This document shows, piece after piece, positions 46,636-56,869 of a stretch of DNA of 64,000 nucleotides. Under the pieces are notes generated by a model. The model had not been told where the DNA came from. It did no database searches and worked only from the letters and a program-made list of their open reading frames with translations. This DNA is from Bdellovibrionales bacterium (GTDB lineage Bacteria > Bdellovibrionota > UBA1018 > CAIMNF01), in contig JAFEAO010000005.1 of NCBI GenBank assembly GCA_018266375.1, positions 66,619-130,618 of the forward strand. The letters run 5' to 3'. The position numbers and the translations under genes are program-made. Numbering within the stretch: position 1 is the stretch's first letter; each line of letters opens with the position of its first letter.

Positions 46636-47295
46636 CTATTCAACAATGCGATCTGTGTTTTTATCCGGTCTAAACTGGAACATTTTGTCGTCGAGCTTTG
46701 GTTGCAGTTTGATTTCCTGCAATTTGATATCAGTTTTATTTCCGCTGGTGTGCGTTAGGATCACTTCTTCAATCTTATGACTAGCTTCATTAATGACTAC
46801 TTCGGCCGTTTTCACGTCACCCGCAGTTCCGTTCTTCGGTGTGAGTATAAACGAGTTTTTGGTCTTCTCGACGATCGTGGTCTTACCGCCGAACTCGAAA
46901 CTGCCTGAGAGAAGCATATTTAAGAACTGAGTCTGCACTTGGGCTGTTTTCTTAATGATGACTTGTCCTCGTTCGCCCTTTTCAAACGGGGGCGAATAGA
47001 ACCAAAACGTCTTGCCGTCGCTCACCAGGATGTTTGGGTCCGGATTGATCGTCTCCCAACGGAGTTTGTTAGGGCGCTTGATCCAGATCTTGCCTTGGGC
47101 CTTCTTGACCTGGCGCGTGGACTTCACGTCGATCAATTGATTGAACGTCGCTTCGAGACCCGCTGACTTCTTGTACTCGGCTTGCACCTTCGCTAAAAGC
47201 GGTGGAATCGCAACCGGAACCGATAGCGCGTTTGCCGTAACCGAAGTTAAAAGGACGAGACTACTGAAGCTCGATAGAAACCATGCGCGAGACAC
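46636..47295 (-). CDS. lolA: outer-membrane lipoprotein carrier protein LolA-like
   Basis: 219 aa with a signal peptide. FNQLIDVKSTRQVKKAQGKIWIKRPNKLRWETINPDPNILVSDGKTFWFYSP is LolA-like. Confidence 0.72.
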   Translation of the reverse strand: MSRAWFLSSFSSLVLLTSVTANALSVPVAIPPLLAKVQAEYKKSAGLEATFNQLIDVKSTRQVKKAQGKIWIKRPNKLRWETINPDPNILVSDGKTFWFYSPPFEKGERGQVIIKKTAQVQTQFLNMLLSGSFEFGGKTTIVEKTKNSFILTPKNGTAGDVKTAEVVINEASHKIEEVILTHTSGNKTDIKLQEIKLQPKLDDKMFQFRPDKNTDRIVE

Positions 47296-50200
47296 CCGGC
47301 TCCTCCATCGTCACGCCGTAGAGCGTGTCGTTCAGTTCCATCGTCTTCTTGTTGTGAGTGACGAGAATGAACTGAGATTTCGACGACATCTCGCGAACGA
47401 GAGCGTTGAACTTGCCGATGTTCGAATCGTCGAGCGGAGCGTCGACCTCGTCCAGAATACAGAACGGAGACGGCTTCACCATAAAGATCGCGAAAATGAG
47501 AGAAATTGCGGTCAGCGCTTTCTCACCACCCGAAAGCAAGGTCATGTTCGAAATTTTCTTTCCGGGAGGCTGAGCAAGAATATCCACGCCTGCTTCAAGG
47601 ATATCGGTCGATCCTTCCGGATAAACCAGGGTGAGCTGCGCCTGACCCCCGCCAAAAATGATCGGAAAGAGCTTTTCGAAACGTGTCGCAATCGCTTCAA
47701 AGGCTTTTTGGAAGCGTTCGATCGAAGTCTTATTGATGTGCTCGATCGCGTCGTTCAAGTTCTGAATCGATTGCTCGAGGTCCATTTTCTCTTTGTAGAG
47801 ATGCTCATGGCGGCGTTGCATATCGTCGAATTCTTCGACGGCCATCGTGTTGACTTCACCTAAGCGGCGGATGCGGTCGCGGAGTGACTCGACTTCTTCG
47901 TGGAGGACTTTTTCCTCTTCCTCGGAAATTTCAAGAGTCACCACAGGATCGGTCATCTCGGATTGCGGCTCTGCTTGATCCAAACAGCCTTCGCCGTATT
48001 TTTCTTCCATGTTGAGCTTCAAGTGATGGAGCTCGCCTTGGATGCGTTCGACGTCGATAGCGAATTGATTGATTTGCTGGTTTTTCTCGTCACCAAGCTT
48101 ATGGAGTTCCTTAATGCGGTCCATGTAGCCGGTCGTGAGAGTGGTCACTTGTTCCAAGCGATCGCGTACGGCTGAGAGCTCTTCACGTTTGTCAGTGAGT
48201 GCGCGAGTGAGAGCGAGAATCGCTTCTTCGTGCTCGAAATCACCGCCGCTGAACCGTTCGCGGTCTTGCTCGAAAGACTCGAGGAGACGGGCAAGCTCCG
48301 ACATGCGGCGTTCGCGGTCCTGTAGATACTTTTGTTCGGTTTCGAGTTCTTTCTTGAGAGAGTTTTTACGTTCGCTCGAAGAAGCCTCTTGAATCTTGAG
48401 TTGCTGAAGCCGTTCCTCATCGGCACGGAGAGATGCGTACTCGGCATCCACTTCGGATTCGTGATCGACAATCCATGCATCGAGAGCCGACTTGGTATTA
48501 GCCATCTCGAGAATGGAGTTTTCGACTTCAGCAATCTCGGTACGGGCAATCTCGGCTTGTTCCGCCGCAGTCTCACGGTCGTCAGCGGCACGCGCTTGGT
48601 TGCGATCGAACTCGGCGACTTGACGCTCGAGCTGAGTGCGTGAACGCTCGAGAGTTGTGACTTCGATTTCGAGGTCAGATGCGGTCGCTTGAAGCTGCTT
48701 CAATTCGGTTTCGACCGATTCCAATGCAACTTGAGCCGCGGTCAAAGCGGTTTCAGACGATTCGTACGTCGCCGTCACCGACTCGAGCTCTACTTTAAGC
48801 TCACCAATCACGCGCTTGCGCGAGAGAACTCCACCGGCTTGCTCGCTGTCGGTCGCGCCACCAAAGAGAACACCTTGGTTAGCATCAAACCAGATTCCAT
48901 TTTTAGTCACGAAGCTAATGCCTTCGGACTGGTAAGTCTTGATGTCGCCCATCGCCGGTACTTCTTCGAGAACTTCGACCGATGCGACGAGGTTTTCAAT
49001 CAAGCGGTGAACCGCTTTTGAGTTTTCAGCTGTATAGCCTTCTGGCATAACAAGCTTTACGAATTTTTTAAGCGGATTGTAGTTCGCGCGATCTTGCGTA
49101 TTTGCCGACGGAACCGCGATTTGAATCGAAGCGCTGCCTGACTTGCTCTCTTTCAAGAAGTTGAGTGCTGCGAATGCATCGTCGGCGTCTTGAGCGTACA
49201 GGCGCTCGAAAGCGTGGCCCATGACCGCTTCAACGGCGGCATCGTATCCGTTTTCGACCTCGATGAAATCCGAGAGAACGGCAAACGCCTTACCGTGTGA
49301 CTCGGTCCATTCCAAAATTTTTTTAGGCCCGTTGGCCATGCCTTCACGAGCGCGTTCGAGATCCTCGAGAGACTTTAATTTCGAGCTGAGGAGCGTGAGT
49401 CCCTTGTGAGATTCGTCACGTGTTTTGCGAGCCGCTCTCAAAGCATCTTCGGCGTCCGAGCGTGCGGCCTTTTGAGAATCGACGCGAGCACGGATTTCGT
49501 TACGGCTCGACGTCTTCTCGTTCAAATCCGTGGTTAAAGTCTCGAACTCGGCCCTGCTTTCAGATGCTTGCGTGCCGATTTCTGCGAGCAAAGAATCGAT
49601 GCGGGCCATTTGACCTTCGGCGCCCTGAATGCGCTCACGGAGCGCGGCGATTTGCGATTGGCTCTCGGTCGTGGTCTCGGTCAAACTCACGAACTCGCGG
49701 CGCTTGATTTCAGCTTCGCGTTTTTTGTCGTCGTGACGTTTACGGAAATCGGAAACATGTTGATTGAGCTCCGAAGTCTTCGCTGTGAGCTCGGCGACTT
49801 TCTCATCGATTCCCAAAAACTCTTCGTTTTTGCCCGCGATCGATTCGCGATGCATTCCCAAATCTTCTTCAATCTGATTGCGTTCGGCTTCGAGTTGAGC
49901 GAGTTGGCGGTTTAAGTCTTCTTGGCGCTGTTTCGAGAGGTGGAGCGCTGACTGGTGATGAGTGAGATCGCCGGCCAGTTTTTCGACCTCGGCTTGGACT
50001 TGCTCTTGGTTTTTAGAATCCGCGAGCTGAACCACGCGCTGAGATTCGAGATTGGCTTCGTTTTGCGCGAGCTCGGCACGAACACCCACGAGCAAATGAT
50101 CCAGACCTTCGCGATCGGCCTGAAGCTTGTCGAACTGACGTTTCAAAACTTGGTTCTTGCGACGGCCCCAAGTGGTTTCTTTTTCGAGAAGTTCTGAGCG

Positions 50201-50896
50201 GTATTCTTTGTATTTGCGGGCTTTCTGCGCCTGGCGCTCGAGCGATGCGAGTGAGCGATCAATCTCGGCAATAACGTCGTTCAAGCGTGACAAGTTGACG
50301 TTCGCGCCTTCGAGTTTGCGCAACGATTCTTTTTTACGCGCTTTGTATTTCGCGATCCCTGCCGCGTCTTCGATGAGCAAGCGTCGATCTTCGGGCTTCG
50401 AGTTCACGACTTTATCGATCTGTCCTTGCTCGATGACCGAGTAACCTTTTGCGCCGATACCGGTGTCCAAGAAAAGCTCCTGGATGTCTTTCAAGCGCGC
50501 CTGCACCCCGTTGATTGCGTATTCGCCGACGCCGTCCGCCCGATACACTCGACGAGTGACCGAAACTTCGCGAGTTTTTTTAGGGAGATTCTCTTCAGTC
50601 GACGCACCCATCGGCATGTTTTCGGTGTCGACGTAGTCTTGCTCGAGAACGAGAGTGGCTTCGGCCATGCCGAGAGGCTGGTACTTGCTTGAGCCTTTGA
50701 AAATGATGTCGTCAGAGCCGCTGGAACGGATGTGTTTGTAGGACTGTTCGCCCATGACCCAGAAGAAGGCGTCGACAATATTGGACTTTCCAGAGCCGTT
50801 TGGTCCGACAATACCGGTAATGGGGCGATCAAAGTGAATGATCGTTTTATCTTTGAATGACTTAAAGCCCTGAATCTCTAGACGTTTAATCCGCAT
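47261..50896 (-). CDS. smc: chromosome partition protein SMC
   Basis: Start at MRIKRLEIQGFKSFKDK...GPNGSGKSN (Walker A). It has long coiled-coil arms, a hinge, the C-terminal signature LSGGEKALTAISLIFAIF and Walker B ILDEVDAPLDD. Confidence 0.93.
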   Translation of the reverse strand: MRIKRLEIQGFKSFKDKTIIHFDRPITGIVGPNGSGKSNIVDAFFWVMGEQSYKHIRSSGSDDIIFKGSSKYQPLGMAEATLVLEQDYVDTENMPMGASTEENLPKKTREVSVTRRVYRADGVGEYAINGVQARLKDIQELFLDTGIGAKGYSVIEQGQIDKVVNSKPEDRRLLIEDAAGIAKYKARKKESLRKLEGANVNLSRLNDVIAEIDRSLASLERQAQKARKYKEYRSELLEKETTWGRRKNQVLKRQFDKLQADREGLDHLLVGVRAELAQNEANLESQRVVQLADSKNQEQVQAEVEKLAGDLTHHQSALHLSKQRQEDLNRQLAQLEAERNQIEEDLGMHRESIAGKNEEFLGIDEKVAELTAKTSELNQHVSDFRKRHDDKKREAEIKRREFVSLTETTTESQSQIAALRERIQGAEGQMARIDSLLAEIGTQASESRAEFETLTTDLNEKTSSRNEIRARVDSQKAARSDAEDALRAARKTRDESHKGLTLLSSKLKSLEDLERAREGMANGPKKILEWTESHGKAFAVLSDFIEVENGYDAAVEAVMGHAFERLYAQDADDAFAALNFLKESKSGSASIQIAVPSANTQDRANYNPLKKFVKLVMPEGYTAENSKAVHRLIENLVASVEVLEEVPAMGDIKTYQSEGISFVTKNGIWFDANQGVLFGGATDSEQAGGVLSRKRVIGELKVELESVTATYESSETALTAAQVALESVETELKQLQATASDLEIEVTTLERSRTQLERQVAEFDRNQARAADDRETAAEQAEIARTEIAEVENSILEMANTKSALDAWIVDHESEVDAEYASLRADEERLQQLKIQEASSSERKNSLKKELETEQKYLQDRERRMSELARLLESFEQDRERFSGGDFEHEEAILALTRALTDKREELSAVRDRLEQVTTLTTGYMDRIKELHKLGDEKNQQINQFAIDVERIQGELHHLKLNMEEKYGEGCLDQAEPQSEMTDPVVTLEISEEEEKVLHEEVESLRDRIRRLGEVNTMAVEEFDDMQRRHEHLYKEKMDLEQSIQNLNDAIEHINKTSIERFQKAFEAIATRFEKLFPIIFGGGQAQLTLVYPEGSTDILEAGVDILAQPPGKKISNMTLLSGGEKALTAISLIFAIFMVKPSPFCILDEVDAPLDDSNIGKFNALVREMSSKSQFILVTHNKKTMELNDTLYGVTMEEPGVSRMVSIELQ

Positions 50897-50944
50897 GCTG
50901 CCCCCTGCCCACACATCATCCTCAAATGAGCAGGAAATGGCAAG

Positions 50945-51346
50945 TTAAGCTACAGACTTTTTGACGGTTTTAGAGAGCTCATCTTTTATTGCGGTGCAGA
51001 AAGTTTGGCGTGAAAAGATCGGCGCATGTGCCTCACCATCCATCAGAATTTCGGTCGTTTTCAGAATCATTTCTTCGGCCACCAAAAACACCGGCGTATG
51101 CGGATGTTGATTCTGTAAGTGTTTTGAAAATTGGATTCCATCGCCCTGCATCTCCGGACAATGACTCAGAAGGAGTTCGGCGAATATGAAATCATACTCC
51201 CGCTTTGAAATGAGTTCACGAGCGCGGCTAAAGGTCACCGCGGTTTCGACTTCAACATCGAAATCCTGGAGCGTCTTCATGACTTTGATTCGCTCCCCGA
51301 GGTGATCTTCTACGAGTAAAACCCGCTTTTTTCCGGCCCTTTTCAC
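50945..51346 (-). CDS. single-domain CheY-like receiver with non-canonical active site (pseudo-receiver)
   Basis: 133 aa with a receiver fold (VLLVEDH...). The phospho-acceptor position reads FIFAELLL, with Glu in place of Asp. Thr is replaced by Ala (LVAEE) and the conserved Lys is absent. It lies 49 nt upstream of smc on the same strand. Confidence 0.62.
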   Translation of the reverse strand: MKRAGKKRVLLVEDHLGERIKVMKTLQDFDVEVETAVTFSRARELISKREYDFIFAELLLSHCPEMQGDGIQFSKHLQNQHPHTPVFLVAEEMILKTTEILMDGEAHAPIFSRQTFCTAIKDELSKTVKKSVA

Positions 51347-51804: not shown

Positions 51805-52548
51805 ATGACTTCTTTGAGCATCATTCTGCCGGCCTACAACGAGGCAAAGCGGCTCCCCCGGACTTTTAGCCTGATTAAAAAGGCGATCAAACAAGGGGTC
51901 TTCGACCAGTGTGATCTTCAAGAGATCCTGGTCGTCGACGACGGCTCTAAAGACAACACCATCCAAGCTGCAGAGGCTGCAAAAACCGAGCTCCCTCAAA
52001 TCCGGGTGGTGCCCATTGTCCCAAACGCCGGCAAAGGAAACGCGATCCACACCGGACTTCGGGAGTCTCGCAGCGACTGGTGCCTCATCGCGGATGCCGA
52101 CAGCGCCACCCCGTGGGATCAATTCATGAAACTTTGGTGGGCGATTCAAAAAAGCAAAGAACCAACCCAGATCGCGATCGGATCACGCGACCTTCCGGAG
52201 AGCGAAATTCGCACTTCTCAATCTTGGCTCCGCGAACACATGGGGAAAACATTCAATTTATTTGTCCGGATAATTACGGGCCTGCCGTTTAAAGACACTC
52301 AGTGCGGTTTCAAACTCATCCATCGCGGATCGATTCAGCCGTTTATCTCACTCCTCATCGTAAAGCGCTTCGCTTGGGACGTGGAGTTCCTCATGTTCGC
52401 CCGCGTGTACAACTTGAATACCGTCGAGGTTGCCGTCGCATGGGAACACCAAGACGATAGCCGCGTGAGCAAGCTAAAAGACAGCGCCGAGATGTTACTT
52501 CGCGTGCTTCAAATGAGAATCCGACTTTTCTTTCTGAAATGGAAATAA
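51805..52548 (+). CDS. polyprenyl-phosphate sugar synthase-type GT2 glycosyltransferase (Dpm1/ArnC/GtrB-like)
   Basis: 247 aa. SIILPAYNEAKRL...VVDDGSKDNT...IADADSATP are the GT2 DxD/DAD motifs typical of dolichyl/undecaprenyl-phosphate sugar synthases. The 3' end overlaps the next gene by 10 nt. Confidence 0.85.
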   Translation: MTSLSIILPAYNEAKRLPRTFSLIKKAIKQGVFDQCDLQEILVVDDGSKDNTIQAAEAAKTELPQIRVVPIVPNAGKGNAIHTGLRESRSDWCLIADADSATPWDQFMKLWWAIQKSKEPTQIAIGSRDLPESEIRTSQSWLREHMGKTFNLFVRIITGLPFKDTQCGFKLIHRGSIQPFISLLIVKRFAWDVEFLMFARVYNLNTVEVAVAWEHQDDSRVSKLKDSAEMLLRVLQMRIRLFFLKWK

Positions 52549-55500
52549 ACAAACCAGATCGCGCTTTCCGGTTCGGAATCCTGTGCTGCGCACTTTTGTG
52601 TTTGTACATTCTGTTTTTCCTCCCGACCTTCGATCTCGACGAGTCGCTCTACCGTCGTGTCGCGGCCGAAATGAAGTTGCACGGAGACTATTGGCATCCC
52701 ACTTGGGATGCGCGCCCGCTCTTGCACAAGCCGCCGATCTTATACTGGATCATCGATTTTTTCAGTTCGGTCATCGATCGCACGCCCGACTACGTGAGCT
52801 CAGTCGCCGCACGCATGCCGGGATTTTTAATTTCAGTCGCGATGACGTTCGCTCTCGGGTGGCGGGCGTCAATGTACTTGTGGATGGGAGCATTCCCCCT
52901 CCTCACCGTTTGCTCGGTGATTTACGATCCGCTTCAAACGCTGGCGCTACTCCCTGCGCTATTGATTCCGGTGCGTTGGTTTCATGAAGATCGCGCAGGC
53001 ACGACTCGCGAGTACGCGTACGTCGCGCTCAGCATGTTCGCCGCCTGCGCGGTCAAAGGATTGAACGGACTCGTGCTACCTGCGCTTGCGGTCGGCGTGC
53101 AACTCCTCGTGCGCGGGGGACCCGAGATGTGGCGACGCGGGTTTGCGTTCAAGGTCAAATCGTTTTGGCCGGCGGTCGCACTCTCGGCCCTCTACTACTG
53201 GTGGCTCGATCAAAAGATGGGTCGGGCGTTTACCGAAGAGTTTTTTTTGGTCCAACACTTCGGGCGCTCACAGGCAGCGCAAGAGTCTCACGGCGGTGGA
53301 ATCCTGTACTACCCGCTCGTCGTATTCATCGGCGCGGGGATGATGCTTCCGTTTTTAATCTCAGCGATAAAATCCCTCGGCAACCTACCTCCGGAGGGTC
53401 CCACGTTACGCCAGACTTTCGCGCGCGTCGGATTCCCTCTTACCTACGCACTTTGTTTCATCGTTTTATTTAGTTTTTCGGCTACAAAACTTCCGCATTA
53501 CCTTTGGCCGATTTGGCCAGCTCTGGCGATTTTTATCGCCGGACGTGAAAGGAGTCCCATGGGTCGCATCGTTCTTATGATCTCATTGATCCCGATGTTT
53601 ATTTTTACGGCAACGTCGATCTTGCTCGCACTGAACCCGATCAGCTTACTGCATGACGTGATCGGATCACCGGCGTTTAAAGCCATTTTCCCGATCGACT
53701 ACTCGATGCCGCTTTCGAGCCGGGCGATGTTCGCGCTGGCAGCGATCATCGGCGCTTCGATCGTCGTCAGACGCCGCAAACTCGCTGAGACGCCTTCGAA
53801 GGCGTTCGGGCAATCGGCTCTCTTCTGCTTGCTGCTCGTCGGCGCCTTCGGACCGATCTTTATCGAACGCGTGCACAATCCGGCGATGGAAATCGCGAAA
53901 GACGTGAACTCACTCGATTACCCGCCGAACACGTGTATGTGGTACACGGGCCCGCACTCGGCAACTTTGAGTATCGCCCTCGGTAACAATATTCTCCACA
54001 ACCGCTGCGAACCACCCGACATGGCGATGATGATCGCACCGGATTGGAAAGTACAAGAGTGCGAAGAGCGCGGAATGAAAGTCGTGAGCCATCACGGTTA
54101 CTTGAACTTGTGCGTGAGCACGACCAAATCCGGAACTTGGGGCGCGAAAGCGTTCGAACCGGGTTTTGGCGGCGTAGGTGGCGCACCGATGGCGAATGCC
54201 AACCCAACAGGCACGGCTATCCTTCCGGGTGCTGACGGAATTCTTGGAACGGCCGACGACATCGTGGTTCAGAATCACGTTCAAGTCGGCGGCGAAGACG
54301 CGACGGATCCTCAGAGCGCAGCAATGCAAGAACTTGTCGTGACTCAGCTCGCGGGCATGGATAAAACTCCCAACACTCTCGACGACGTCGTGACTTACAC
54401 TTACGCCGGCCCGGACGGAAAGCTCGGTACCGAAGACGACGTTCCGGCTCCGCGCCTTGGCCGTCGCAAATCTAAATCGACCAAATCTGCTCAGTCCGCA
54501 GTCACTCACCTCGGGTTCGACAAGGCGGGCAACACCGAGACCATGGAGTTCGTCGGCGGCGACGGAGTCGAAGGCACTGCCGATGACGTCGTTGTGACCC
54601 GCGCTGCGGGTCCGGATGGAAAAACCGGAACGGCCGACGACGTGGTAGTCACGCAAATGGTGGGTGAAGACGGAATCGCCGGTACCAAAGACGACATCGA
54701 ACTTGTGCGAACCGTGGGCGACGACAAAATTCCGGGAAACGCCGACGACGTGGTTTCTTACGTGTACGCAGGTCCGGATAAAATTTTCGGAACCGAAGAC
54801 GACGTTCCGACCACTCCGTTGGCAAAAAAAGATCATAAAGCTTACTCCGACAAAGAATCGAAGAAAGTGAAGAGCACTCAGCTCGATCTCGGCGATGACC
54901 GCGAAGTCGTCATGACGTTTGCGGGTGAAGACGAAAAGTTCGGCACTTCGGACGACGTTGTGGTGATTAAAGACAAGAAAACGGGCAAGACGACCACTCA
55001 AGCGATCGGCGAAGACAAAACTCCCGGCACCGAAGACGACGTCTCGGTCACTCGCTTGGTTGGCGACGATGGAATCCCAGGAACAGAGGACGACGTCGTC
55101 GCATACAAATATGCGGGACCGGATAAGGCTTTCGACACCGGGGACGACGTTCCTGCGACTCCGCTAGGAATCGCGGCAACTTCGATTCCGGCTCCGGGTC
55201 GCGATCCGATCTTGGGTAATCTGAAAAATAATTCGCGCGGGATTCCACGCACTCGTTCTTCCAAAAAAGGAAAAGTCGTGCACATCGGGCTAAAAGACGG
55301 CCGCGAAGTCGTGATGACCTTTACCAGCGAAGACGAACACGGCAACGCGAAACCCGCTCCGGATGACGTTGCCGTTATCAAAGACAAGAGAGGCAAAGTC
55401 ACGAGACAAATGATCGGCGACGACTTAACTCCGGGAACGGCGGATGACGTCGTAGTCACAGAGTTCATCGGTAAAGACAAACTCGCTGGGTCTAAAGATC

Positions 55501-56189
55501 ACGTTCTCGTTGCGAAACGCGTGGGTCCGGATTTGCTTCCGGATACTGCCGATGACGAAGTGATCGACCTCGCCAAGGGCGGCATCCAATTCAAAGGCGG
55601 TAAACCTCTAGTCGAGGGCGAACAATCTACTGCAGGCGCAGTCACCGATACAAAGGGCGCGGTGAAAATGAAAGTAACCGACGCTAAAGGTGCCGCTACC
55701 GGAACGGGCGCATACGCGAAGAAGGCAGACGAGAAACCGCCAATTGCAAAAATGTTCCCGGTACCGCCAAAGAAACCGACTCCTCGCAAAGCGATCGTAA
55801 AGGTCGCAAAACCGGCCGCACCGAAGACTCCAAAAGAAAATCCAGCGAAGGTAAAGAAGATCGCGTTTGAGAAAAACGTAAAGGTGGTCGAACAGCAAGT
55901 TCTCGCAATGGACTTCTGCGAAGCTTATCTCTGCGACGATCAGTATAAATCCGAACGCGTCCTTGAGAACATCGAATCGTTTAACTACGACTACCAAGAG
56001 CCGCAGTATCGCGCGGTTCAGCTCAAAATGCTAAACGATTCGCTCATCAAAGCGATCGAGTACAAAAAGAACTGGCGCAAGTACACGCCCGAGTACGAAG
56101 TCGGATTGATGAGCCAAGAGCAAGTGGACGGGATCATGACTCCGCTCATTCAGCGCTTGCGCGACAACATCAAACTCCTGAAGAAGTAA
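52539..56189 (+). CDS. fusion protein: N-terminal ArnT/PMT-like GT-C membrane glycosyltransferase (about 500 aa) + about 600-aa Asp/Thr-rich tandem-repeat region + Lys/Pro-rich linker + C-terminal globular domain
   Basis: 1216 aa. The first loop, FDLDESLYRRVAAEMKLHGDYWHPTWDARPLLHKPPILYW, closely parallels the ArnT DE..YAEISREM...FEKPPLxYW signature. About 12 TM helices follow. From about aa 560 onward there are at least 15 copies of a 13-16-aa unit G-x-D-G-x-x-G-T-x-D-D-V-V-V-T (for example PGADGILGTADDIVV, AGPDGKTGTADDVVVT, VGDDGIPGTEDDVVAY). These are organised into three roughly 90-aa super-repeats that each begin REVVMTF-(A/T)-(G/S)-EDE. Then come AKP-rich spacers and a final roughly 110-aa domain containing two Cys. 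Confidence 0.78.
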   Translation: MEINKPDRAFRFGILCCALLCLYILFFLPTFDLDESLYRRVAAEMKLHGDYWHPTWDARPLLHKPPILYWIIDFFSSVIDRTPDYVSSVAARMPGFLISVAMTFALGWRASMYLWMGAFPLLTVCSVIYDPLQTLALLPALLIPVRWFHEDRAGTTREYAYVALSMFAACAVKGLNGLVLPALAVGVQLLVRGGPEMWRRGFAFKVKSFWPAVALSALYYWWLDQKMGRAFTEEFFLVQHFGRSQAAQESHGGGILYYPLVVFIGAGMMLPFLISAIKSLGNLPPEGPTLRQTFARVGFPLTYALCFIVLFSFSATKLPHYLWPIWPALAIFIAGRERSPMGRIVLMISLIPMFIFTATSILLALNPISLLHDVIGSPAFKAIFPIDYSMPLSSRAMFALAAIIGASIVVRRRKLAETPSKAFGQSALFCLLLVGAFGPIFIERVHNPAMEIAKDVNSLDYPPNTCMWYTGPHSATLSIALGNNILHNRCEPPDMAMMIAPDWKVQECEERGMKVVSHHGYLNLCVSTTKSGTWGAKAFEPGFGGVGGAPMANANPTGTAILPGADGILGTADDIVVQNHVQVGGEDATDPQSAAMQELVVTQLAGMDKTPNTLDDVVTYTYAGPDGKLGTEDDVPAPRLGRRKSKSTKSAQSAVTHLGFDKAGNTETMEFVGGDGVEGTADDVVVTRAAGPDGKTGTADDVVVTQMVGEDGIAGTKDDIELVRTVGDDKIPGNADDVVSYVYAGPDKIFGTEDDVPTTPLAKKDHKAYSDKESKKVKSTQLDLGDDREVVMTFAGEDEKFGTSDDVVVIKDKKTGKTTTQAIGEDKTPGTEDDVSVTRLVGDDGIPGTEDDVVAYKYAGPDKAFDTGDDVPATPLGIAATSIPAPGRDPILGNLKNNSRGIPRTRSSKKGKVVHIGLKDGREVVMTFTSEDEHGNAKPAPDDVAVIKDKRGKVTRQMIGDDLTPGTADDVVVTEFIGKDKLAGSKDHVLVAKRVGPDLLPDTADDEVIDLAKGGIQFKGGKPLVEGEQSTAGAVTDTKGAVKMKVTDAKGAATGTGAYAKKADEKPPIAKMFPVPPKKPTPRKAIVKVAKPAAPKTPKENPAKVKKIAFEKNVKVVEQQVLAMDFCEAYLCDDQYKSERVLENIESFNYDYQEPQYRAVQLKMLNDSLIKAIEYKKNWRKYTPEYEVGLMSQEQVDGIMTPLIQRLRDNIKLLKK

Positions 56190-56274: not shown

Positions 56275-56475
56275 TCAGCTAAAATCGCGGTCCATTACGG
56301 TTTTGCGTCCGTCGCGCTTAGCAGCTTCTACCGCTTGGTCGCAAAGATCGCGCACTTTGTCTGAAAGTACGTCGATGACTGCTGCTGAAGTGTTCATGCC
56401 TGACTTAGCACGAATGTAGTTCTTCAATTTAGAAGCGACGATCAAAACTTCTTTTTCTGCATTACCTTCTGTCAT
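56275..56475 (-). CDS. histone-fold DNA-binding protein (archaeal HMfB-like / Bdellovibrio HBb-like). Minimal 66-aa form; the in-frame ORF extends to 56835
   Basis: MTEGNAEKEVLIVASKLKNYIRAKSGMNTSAAVIDVLSDKVRDLCDQAVEAAKRDGRKTVMDRDFS aligns to the HMfB pattern (...RIIKNAGAERVSDDA...EIASEAVKLAKHAGRKTIKAEDI), including the diagnostic A-K-x-x-GRKT-[IV] motif. The ATG at 56475 has a GAAAGGGA RBS-like sequence upstream. The ORF is continuous for another 120 codons upstream (see findings). Confidence 0.6.
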   Translation of the reverse strand: MTEGNAEKEVLIVASKLKNYIRAKSGMNTSAAVIDVLSDKVRDLCDQAVEAAKRDGRKTVMDRDFS

Positions 56476-56869
56476 GGTGTAGTCCCTTTCTTCTTCTGAT
56501 TCTTGTTCTTCTGAACCTAAACCTGCAATAAATCTTTCCCGATCCGATACGACTTTTCGACTGGTTCCACTGCTGGCTGCCTTCTCGCGAGGTGACTCGG
56601 AGGTCGATGGTGCATCGTCTGCGGTGAGCTCTTTTGGAGCTCGGTTTTCTAACGCCCAGGATTCTCGATGGTTATACAACGGAACGTGGGCATCCCAACA
56701 CTCTACTGAGCAAAAAACCAGTCCAGTACGTTTTCGGTTACAGGTCGAAACATTACAGGTCCAATACACAGATTTCAAGTGAATCGGTTTCTTACATGAG
56801 GAGCAAAGCTTCCAAACGATCTGTGTGGTGTCCACACTCGAAATTCTTCAATGGTTTCAAATAAAAAGC

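Follow-up and report, generated by a model that had tools for sequence, protein, structure and literature searches.

A modular tandem array of PERCAL-type repeats on an ArnT-like GT-C protein of a Bdellovibrionales bacterium

The PERCAL motif, G-x-D-G-x-x-[GN]-[TN]-x-D-D, goes back to a 2012 study of PepA and PehA of Pseudomonas putida, in which it was derived from insertions found in animal-type haem peroxidases of bacteria (Santamaria-Hernando, Krell and Ramos-Gonzalez 2012; PMC3396595). Calorimetry showed specific Ca2+ binding by the peptide DIDIVLPGPDGILGTADDIGN, with a dissociation constant (KD) of 33-79 uM, and the pseudopilin GspG (PDB 3G20) holds Ca2+ in its loop PGPDGVPNTEDD through P114 O, V119 O, D117, T122, and D125, the loop being flanked by antiparallel strands that are important for its conformation (PMC3396595). 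Pattern position 4 is a glycine that provides no Ca2+ ligand in GspG (PMC3396595). The present analysis concerns a repeat with this motif at its core, encoded in a 64,000-nucleotide stretch of a Bdellovibrionales bacterium (GenBank assembly GCA_018266375.1, contig JAFEAO010000005.1, positions 66,619 to 130,618 of the forward strand), which is called the window throughout. The repeat lies in a protein of 1216 residues whose N-terminal part is an ArnT-like GT-C membrane domain.

An earlier note on this DNA, made from the sequence alone, had described a novel Asp/Thr-rich tandem repeat. By sequence comparison the 11-residue core of the repeat is the published PERCAL motif, which is widespread, and it is not novel. 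What survives of the claim is the packaging, namely 18-residue tandem units, four-unit modules, and fusion to a GT-C protein, a form that is undescribed and has no family model. Current understanding is not overturned by this finding; a known motif is extended to a new architecture.

Repeat units, modules, and the PERCAL core

The repeat consensus, xxVGxDxxxGTxDDVVVT, covers 18 residues, and 15 intact and two degenerate units are found within 54219..55568. Anchoring on D-D-[VIE] delimits 16 units of 18 residues over residues 561-1010, of which 15 are intact and one is degenerate (residues 930-947); alignment of the modules with MAFFT revealed a second degenerate unit at residues 582-599. The units are positioned as follows.

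54219, 54345, 54399, 54546, 54600, 54654, 54708, and 54762, plus strand: starts of intact units
54915, 54999, 55053, 55107, 55407, 55461, and 55515, plus strand: starts of intact units, continued
54282..54335 and 55326..55379, plus strand: degenerate units

All of the strings quoted in the earlier note occur in the translation, and its count of at least 15 copies agrees with the present one, while its period of about 15 residues has to be corrected to 18, the motif-to-motif gaps being exactly 18 residues in nine of 14 cases. The pattern G.D...[GDN][TN].DD occurs 14 times in residues 541-1020, against a mean of 0.0045 and a maximum of one in 20,000 composition-preserving shuffles. The G-x-D...DD motif was found nowhere else in the six frames of the 64-kb window.

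The units are grouped into four super-repeat modules of 86-104 residues, each with four unit positions except the second, which has five, and with Lys-rich linkers between them. Because of these linkers, the start-to-start spacing of the modules is about 110-135 residues.

54195..54473, plus strand: module S0, residues 553-645, with units at 54219, 54282 (degenerate), 54345, and 54399
54522..54833, plus strand: module S1, residues 662-765, with five uninterrupted units at 54546, 54600, 54654, 54708, and 54762
54882..55178, plus strand: module S2, residues 782-880, with units at 54915, 54999, 55053, and 55107
55287..55574, plus strand: module S3, residues 917-1012, with units at 55326 (degenerate), 55407, 55461, and 55515

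The likeness of the four modules emerges from segment-versus-segment BLASTP, MAFFT, and a module hidden Markov model (HMM). BLASTP of module against module gives E values of about 1e-6 to 3e-27, and the longer alignments are 36-56% identical; segment-versus-segment comparison was needed here, as BLASTP of the whole region against itself returned the diagonal only. In S1 the motif gaps are all exactly 18 residues, and S2 carries a 10-residue insertion, IKDKKTGKTT, after its first unit. S0, S1, and S2 share the ending Y-x-Y-A-G-P-D-x-x-[FL]-[GD]-T-x-D-D-V-P-x-x-[PR]-L. The nested periodicity described earlier is thus present, with four modules rather than the three proposed, S0 having been missed. 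The opening REVVMTF...VIKDK, attributed to all three super-repeats, is found in only two modules, S2 and S3, the third, S1, being more divergent. The repeat region as a whole is rich in D (14%), G (11%), V (11%), T (10%), and K (8%), and its net charge is -33, with basic linkers alternating.

Comparison with PERCAL was made unit by unit. Unit 1, LPGADGILGTADDI, in module S0, is identical at 13 of 14 positions to LPGPDGILGTADDI, the core of the Ca2+-binding test peptide. Six units match the strict pattern exactly, and six more depart from it at pattern position 4 only (G to K, E, or L); the remaining units comprise two with two mismatches, one with three, and one degenerate. Across 29 units from the window protein and the two orthologues described below, G4, D6, and D13 are each kept in 29 of 29, position 11 is T, S, or N in 29 of 29 (T in 25), D14 is kept in 28, and position 7, corresponding to the Gly of the PERCAL D-G, is free. 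The side-chain ligand positions of GspG 3G20 (first Asp, Thr, and last Asp) are present in the window units, and where the orthologue alignment crosses the repeat region, its invariant columns are the motif residues. Aligned with the GspG loop, the residues kept across the 29 units correspond to its ligands plus glycines. The resemblance of the DG...DD spacing to Ca2+-binding loops, remarked on previously, is borne out in that the core is a PERCAL Ca2+ motif.

A double-unit profile of 36 positions, searched against the PDB, ranked GspG 3g20 best (E 0.3, not significant); a second GspG and the GPDGQPGTGDDI loop of quinohaemoprotein amine dehydrogenase were also among the top sequences, likewise without significance, because the match spans 12 residues only. 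The initial homology search had independently drawn peroxidase fragments P0004-P0006, which carry GPDGILGTADD, among its few matches to the repeat region.

Two hmmscan queries, the full-length protein and the isolated repeat region, were run for known repeat families. The Pfam-A threshold was E<=10 for both, and the NCBIfam threshold was E<=10 for the former and E<=0.1 for the latter. With the reservation that HMMER filters can hide matches above an E value of about 0.1, the repeat matched neither FG-GAP, VCBS, TSP_3, Dockerin_1, HemolysinCabind (RTX), and SdrD_B nor any other Pfam or NCBIfam model, in line with the earlier note's remark on the FG-GAP, dockerin, and thrombospondin type 3 consensus sequences. 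Membership of the FG-GAP, VCBS, TSP3, dockerin, and RTX families was rejected on these results, and the repeat region found nothing significant among PDB sequences.

The repeat is visible at the protein level only. Tandem Repeats Finder (score 30) reported no DNA tandem array in the repeat region, and the modules can be compared as DNA over partial stretches only, at just 68-78% identity; the duplications are therefore old, and a recent DNA-level expansion was rejected. The recurring gacgacgt strings pointed out previously are real and merely encode D-D-V: GAYGAYGTNG has 12 matches in the window, eight of which lie on the plus strand at 54381-55452, and the expectation from shuffling is 2.65. 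The antisense reading frame over this region was also correctly regarded as spurious.

53910..55001, minus strand: spurious antisense open reading frame (ORF) of 363 residues, in the codon-aligned antisense frame

It is open because its stops would need sense TTA, CTA, or TCA codons, of which the sense gene has none from residue 459 to residue 875. A real antisense gene at this position was rejected, the sense gene being backed by homology and synteny.

Host protein, glycosyltransferase partner, and orthologues

The 1216-residue protein is identical to NCBI JST80_06570, annotated 'hypothetical protein', from a Bdellovibrionales bacterium metagenome-assembled genome. Its domain order is GT-C membrane domain, Cys-containing juxtamembrane domain, PERCAL repeats, a linker rich in K, P, and A, and a C-terminal helical domain.

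52539..56189, plus strand: whole GT-C/repeat gene, 1216 residues, from the ORF list
52539..53873, plus strand: ArnT-like GT-C transmembrane domain, residues 1-445
53874..54194, plus strand: juxtamembrane soluble domain, residues 446-552, with Cys 466, 490, 508, and 525
55575..55835, plus strand: Lys/Pro/Ala-rich low-complexity linker by composition, residues 1013-1099
55836..56186, plus strand: conserved C-terminal domain, residues 1100-1216, with an invariant C-x4-C
51805..52548, plus strand: GT2 glycosyltransferase, 247 residues, Pfam Glycos_transf_2 at E 4.2e-23

The fusion to a GT-C enzyme suggested in the earlier note is supported by a PDB sequence search, in which residues 31-432 align with chain positions 55-453 of ArnT 5ezm (E 7.5e-8). 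The NCBIfam ArnT model is matched at E 1.7e-7, and the score of 30 bits stands against a cut-off of 567, because of which the protein is not taken as an ArnT equivalog. The Pfam GT-C models PMT and PMT_2 gave no match to residues 1-545, even at E<=10. The domain is accordingly described as ArnT-like and very divergent, recognisable through 5ezm and the sub-threshold NCBIfam model. It has about 10-12 hydrophobic segments, the last of them at residues 427-445 and preceded by a basic loop with five K/R. All three orthologues keep D32-L-D34-E35 and K64-P65-P66 unchanged, and these residues are aligned with PDE and EKPP of ArnT, in the first extracytoplasmic loop.

The juxtamembrane domain occupies the position of ArnT's own periplasmic domain. 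Its four cysteines are all invariant in the three-orthologue alignment, and a search of Pfam family models gave no match to it. Everything after residue 445, the repeats included, is probably periplasmic, because of the ArnT alignment, the loop of five K/R before the last transmembrane segment, the conserved cysteines, and the C-x4-C. Beyond the repeats, the K/P/A-rich linker has no family-model match, and over the slightly longer window of residues 1013-1110 the net charge is +15. The C-terminal domain, of about 115 residues, shares 54-57% identity with both orthologues and carries the invariant MD[FY]CEAYLC[DE]D together with an EYKKNW[RK]K motif. AlphaFold2 (AF2) models it as a four-helix bundle, with a predicted local distance difference test score (pLDDT) of 82 and a predicted template modelling score (pTM) of 0.76. 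No Pfam family matched this domain, Foldseek against the PDB gave no significant or informative fold neighbour, and the predicted bundle yields no functional lead.

Directly upstream lies the GT2 gene, which shares its last 10 nt with the GT-C gene. The best PDB relatives of the GT2 protein are dolichol-P-mannose synthase 5mlz (1.6e-10), ArnC 9hwj (4e-9), and GtrB 5ekp, which suggests that it is probably the polyprenyl-phosphate-sugar synthase partner of the GT-C enzyme. By homology, then, the two genes form a classical two-enzyme set, in which a synthase makes the polyprenyl-phosphate sugar and a transferase facing the periplasm uses it. Lipid A glycosylation employs such sets, for example in Francisella, and a mannose-substituted lipid A of Bdellovibrio is cited in the same source (PMC2233673). 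A tie of the present pair to lipid A would be an inference by analogy only. With three sequences known, this combination of GT2 and ArnT-like protein is very rare, and the type genus of the Bdellovibrionales has a sugar-substituted lipid A.

Only two relatives were found in 5.8 billion clusters, P0017 (1016 residues) and P0021 (873 residues). Their best local alignments to the window protein are each 41% identical, the three orthologues are mutually 41-47% identical, and both relatives are collinear with the window protein over the N-terminal GT-C and the C-terminal domains. The number of modules varies: the window protein has four and the orthologues three and two, with nine and five units. 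Scans of GTDB species genomes and JGI metagenome contigs with orthologue alignments found no further relatives, and the alignment available for structure prediction was therefore shallow. A word-seeded profile search with the module alignment missed even the query protein, which is present in the collection, and so was not read as absence.

In the AF2 model of module S2 (pLDDT 64, pTM 0.48), six strands of five to six residues have four motif loops of 12 residues between them. The model agrees with the hairpin geometry of PERCAL in GspG, at a confidence too low to settle the fold.

The three loci have a neighbourhood in common, which runs SMC, response regulator, GT2, GT-C, further genes, MarC, and GGDEF, with GT2 directly upstream of GT-C in all three.

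47261..50914, minus strand: SMC protein, 1217 residues, upstream of the GT2/GT-C pair
50945..51346, minus strand: single-domain response regulator (Response_reg in L001), upstream of the GT2/GT-C pair
56275..56475, minus strand: histone-fold protein, 66 residues, closely related to the Bdellovibrio histone Bd0055 (PDB 8cmp/8fvx, E 2.5e-15)

The order of the SMC and response-regulator genes is kept in the three orthologous loci, and these genes have no obvious functional link to the GT2/GT-C pair. The histone-fold gene is lengthened to 186 residues (56275..56835) in the mechanical ORF list; gene callers place the 66-residue gene here, downstream of the GT-C gene, in L001, in L003, and in the contig of P0017.

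Candidate roles of the array

The explanation that we favour, and consider reasonably probable, is that the tandem PERCAL-type Ca2+ loops form a periplasmic stalk of variable length on the ArnT-like GT-C enzyme. Each 18-residue unit would consist of a short beta-strand (DVVVTxxV) followed by a loop of 11-12 residues (G-x-D-x-x-x-G-T-x-D-D), and by analogy with GspG the loop would hold one Ca2+ through the side chains of the first Asp, the Thr, and the last Asp together with two backbone carbonyls. Neighbouring units would share strands, so that four or five of them build a small antiparallel beta-meander module; four such acidic modules, with Lys-rich linkers between them, could carry about one Ca2+ per unit, or some 15 in total. 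The array would follow the last transmembrane helix, in the periplasm, where Ca2+ is available, and would link the GT-C enzyme to the conserved C-terminal helical domain. The role as a stalk or tether is proposed because the three orthologues have conserved N- and C-terminal domains yet differ in having four, three, or two modules; the array itself would then be neither catalytic nor a specific binding site. RTX arrays fold only where Ca2+ is available, outside the cytoplasm, and by that analogy the present array would probably remain unfolded as long as it is in the cytoplasm, where Ca2+ is low, and acquire its fold once exported.

Several points weigh against this explanation. The variable copy number is the sole argument for the stalk role, the periplasmic topology draws on weak ArnT homology and the positive-inside rule, and the proposed Ca2+ binding of the window units draws on their likeness to PERCAL and GspG. 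The strict PERCAL pattern is satisfied at just six of 17 unit positions, and the window protein and its orthologues mostly have K, Q, or L in place of the Gly that follows the first Asp, a substitution that could alter the loop. Confidence in the AF2 model of S2 is only moderate, and the other four models have pLDDT values of 50-60. Among PDB structures with the loose motif G-x-D-G-x(5)-D-D, four of six bind nothing there (PMC3396595).

If Ca2+ is bound as proposed, a single membrane enzyme would have some 15 Ca2+ sites, packed into a compact repeat that has no domain-database model, and nature would here have used the PERCAL loop as a building block as opposed to an isolated insertion. The modules, of about 90 residues, offer a clean system for determining the structure of tandem PERCAL arrays. 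A more tentative and less probable version goes further and takes the 18-residue units as a previously unseen, self-standing fold that depends on Ca2+, with each hairpin loop of a single-layer or paired beta-meander holding one cation. Such a fold would both act as a folding ratchet coupled to export and serve as a periplasmic ruler of adjustable length, which would keep the conserved C-terminal domain of the glycosyltransferase, a lipid-A or an envelope enzyme, at a fixed distance from the inner membrane. If true, this would add a new structural class of bacterial Ca2+ repeat beside the RTX beta-roll.

The C-terminal periplasmic domains of GT-C enzymes commonly aid acceptor recognition, as in ArnT, PglB, and the Emb proteins. 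The array could on that precedent be a Ca2+-dependent binding module, acceptor-recruiting or lectin-like, whose cations or acidic surface hold an envelope ligand near the GT-C active site, candidate ligands being lipid A or lipopolysaccharide phosphates, polysaccharide, and peptidoglycan. The net charge of -33 in alternation with basic linkers would suit such a role, as would the ArnC/ArnT-type operon pair, of the kind used for lipid A glycosylation (PMC2233673). Variation between two and four modules is, however, unexpected for a precise site next to a conserved enzyme and a conserved C-terminal domain, residues 446-552 already provide a domain at the position of the ArnT periplasmic domain, and neither the Pfam scans nor a structure-neighbour search found similarity to a carbohydrate-binding family. 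We regard a binding module as unlikely.

That the region is a flexible, disordered spacer, an acidic and basic polyampholyte whose likeness to PERCAL entails no cation binding, seems distinctly unlikely. That 28-29 of 29 units keep G, D, T, and DD in place, in orthologues sharing 41-47% identity, is difficult to reconcile with disorder, and hydrophobic VVVT strands in an exact 18-residue register indicate a folded unit, even though the biased composition, the moderate to low AF2 confidence, and the lack of matching family models are what a disordered linker would show.

One conserved Thr or Ser per unit, in an array tethered to a GT-C domain that uses a polyprenyl-phosphate sugar, also raises the thought of a built-in glycosylation substrate, in which the GT-C domain would O-glycosylate the G-T-x-D-D threonine of its own polypeptide, much as PMT-type protein O-mannosyltransferases modify their substrates. 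This is very improbable, since the matching Thr of GspG is a Ca2+ ligand, which accounts for its conservation, the motif occurs in hundreds of proteins with no attached glycosyltransferase, and the closest solved relative, ArnT, is a lipid A transferase and not a protein O-glycosyltransferase.

An ordinary adhesin-type repeat of an existing Pfam family (FG-GAP, VCBS, TSP type 3, dockerin, RTX/HemolysinCabind, or SdrD_B) is scarcely credible, for despite a superficial likeness to D-x-D-G type loops and the occurrence of the same motif within SdrD_B domains of other proteins, at a period of about 110 residues, the Pfam-A and NCBIfam scans described above returned none of these families, and the 18-residue period and the missing upstream D-x-D fit none of them.

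Other PERCAL-type arrays and comparison with known systems

When the double-unit profile was run exhaustively with HMMER over 1.84 billion cluster representatives, 383 proteins reached E<=1e-3, of which 74 passed E<=1e-10 and 11 passed E<=1e-30. This exposes a gap in Pfam and NCBIfam, with at least 383 protein clusters matching the motif profile and no covering model in those checked. Motif periods were tallied in the best 150 of the 383 matches. Within these, 18 proteins, including P0014, have a 16-residue period, and 20 have a period of 26-30 residues, including an SLH-domain protein (P0009, 28 residues); the 33-38-residue class includes the small hypothetical proteins P0001-P0003, and 35 proteins have a period of about 100-125 residues. 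Where members of this long-period class were tested (P0025 and P0041, about 110 residues), they consist of SdrD_B domains with one loop each. The 18-residue period is confined, in the best 150, to the window protein, its two orthologues, and P0018, in which the residues between the loops are unrelated to the window repeat (RARAGRAGPDGIPGTADD).

No Pfam or NCBIfam model covered the repeats in the short-period arrays that were scanned. Strict 16-residue arrays, such as LYxxFGPDGLxGTxDD, are seen in P0014, P0057, P0037, P0031, P0035, P0045, and P0048; no Pfam model lies over the repeats of P0014, P0057, or P0037, and no NCBIfam model over those of P0014 or P0057. These 16-residue Ca2+-loop arrays look like an unmodelled repeat class. 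In P0014 the repeats lie within a protein that has sub-threshold similarity to an RcGTA-type tail tape measure protein.

The nearest described relatives of the loop are the PERCAL peroxidases, which have the same 11-residue core. There the catalytic domain contains the motif singly, as an isolated insertion, or in pairs spaced about 17 residues apart, whereas the window protein has an 18-residue tandem array in four-unit modules, has mostly replaced the Gly after the first Asp, and is a GT-C protein. GspG 3G20 presents its PGPDGVPNTEDD loop between antiparallel strands, and its ligand-equivalent positions are conserved in the window units; unlike the window protein, it has a pilin fold with one unrepeated site, and the two share no homology beyond the loop.

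The RTX nonapeptide beta-roll (HemolysinCabind, GGxGxDxUx) is a functional analogue, with Gly/Asp-rich tandem Ca2+ loops, two nonapeptides of which likewise give an 18-residue period. The window repeat differs from it in its consensus, in matching no Pfam model, and in its predicted antiparallel hairpin meander as against a parallel beta-roll; no beta-roll was among the structural neighbours of the repeat-module model. ArnT (PmrK), the lipid A aminoarabinose transferase of 5EZM, is the counterpart of the enzyme part, to which window residues 31-432 align, with D-E and K-P-P conserved in the first periplasmic loop. It works with an ArnC-type GT2 partner, and the window GT-C adjoins a GT2 that resembles dolichol-P-mannose synthase, ArnC, and GtrB. 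ArnT, unlike the window protein, ends after a periplasmic domain of about 100 residues and has neither a repeat array nor a helical C-terminal domain.

Other PERCAL-like arrays, in surface proteins, share the loop motif at periods of 16, 18, 28, and about 110 residues, with inter-loop residues (LYxxF, RARAGRA, WWNG) that are unrelated to those of the window repeat. On these sequence comparisons the PERCAL loop is a widely reused element, and the VVVT-strand unit, its four-unit modules with Lys-rich linkers, and the fusion to GT-C are specific to the window protein and its two orthologues.

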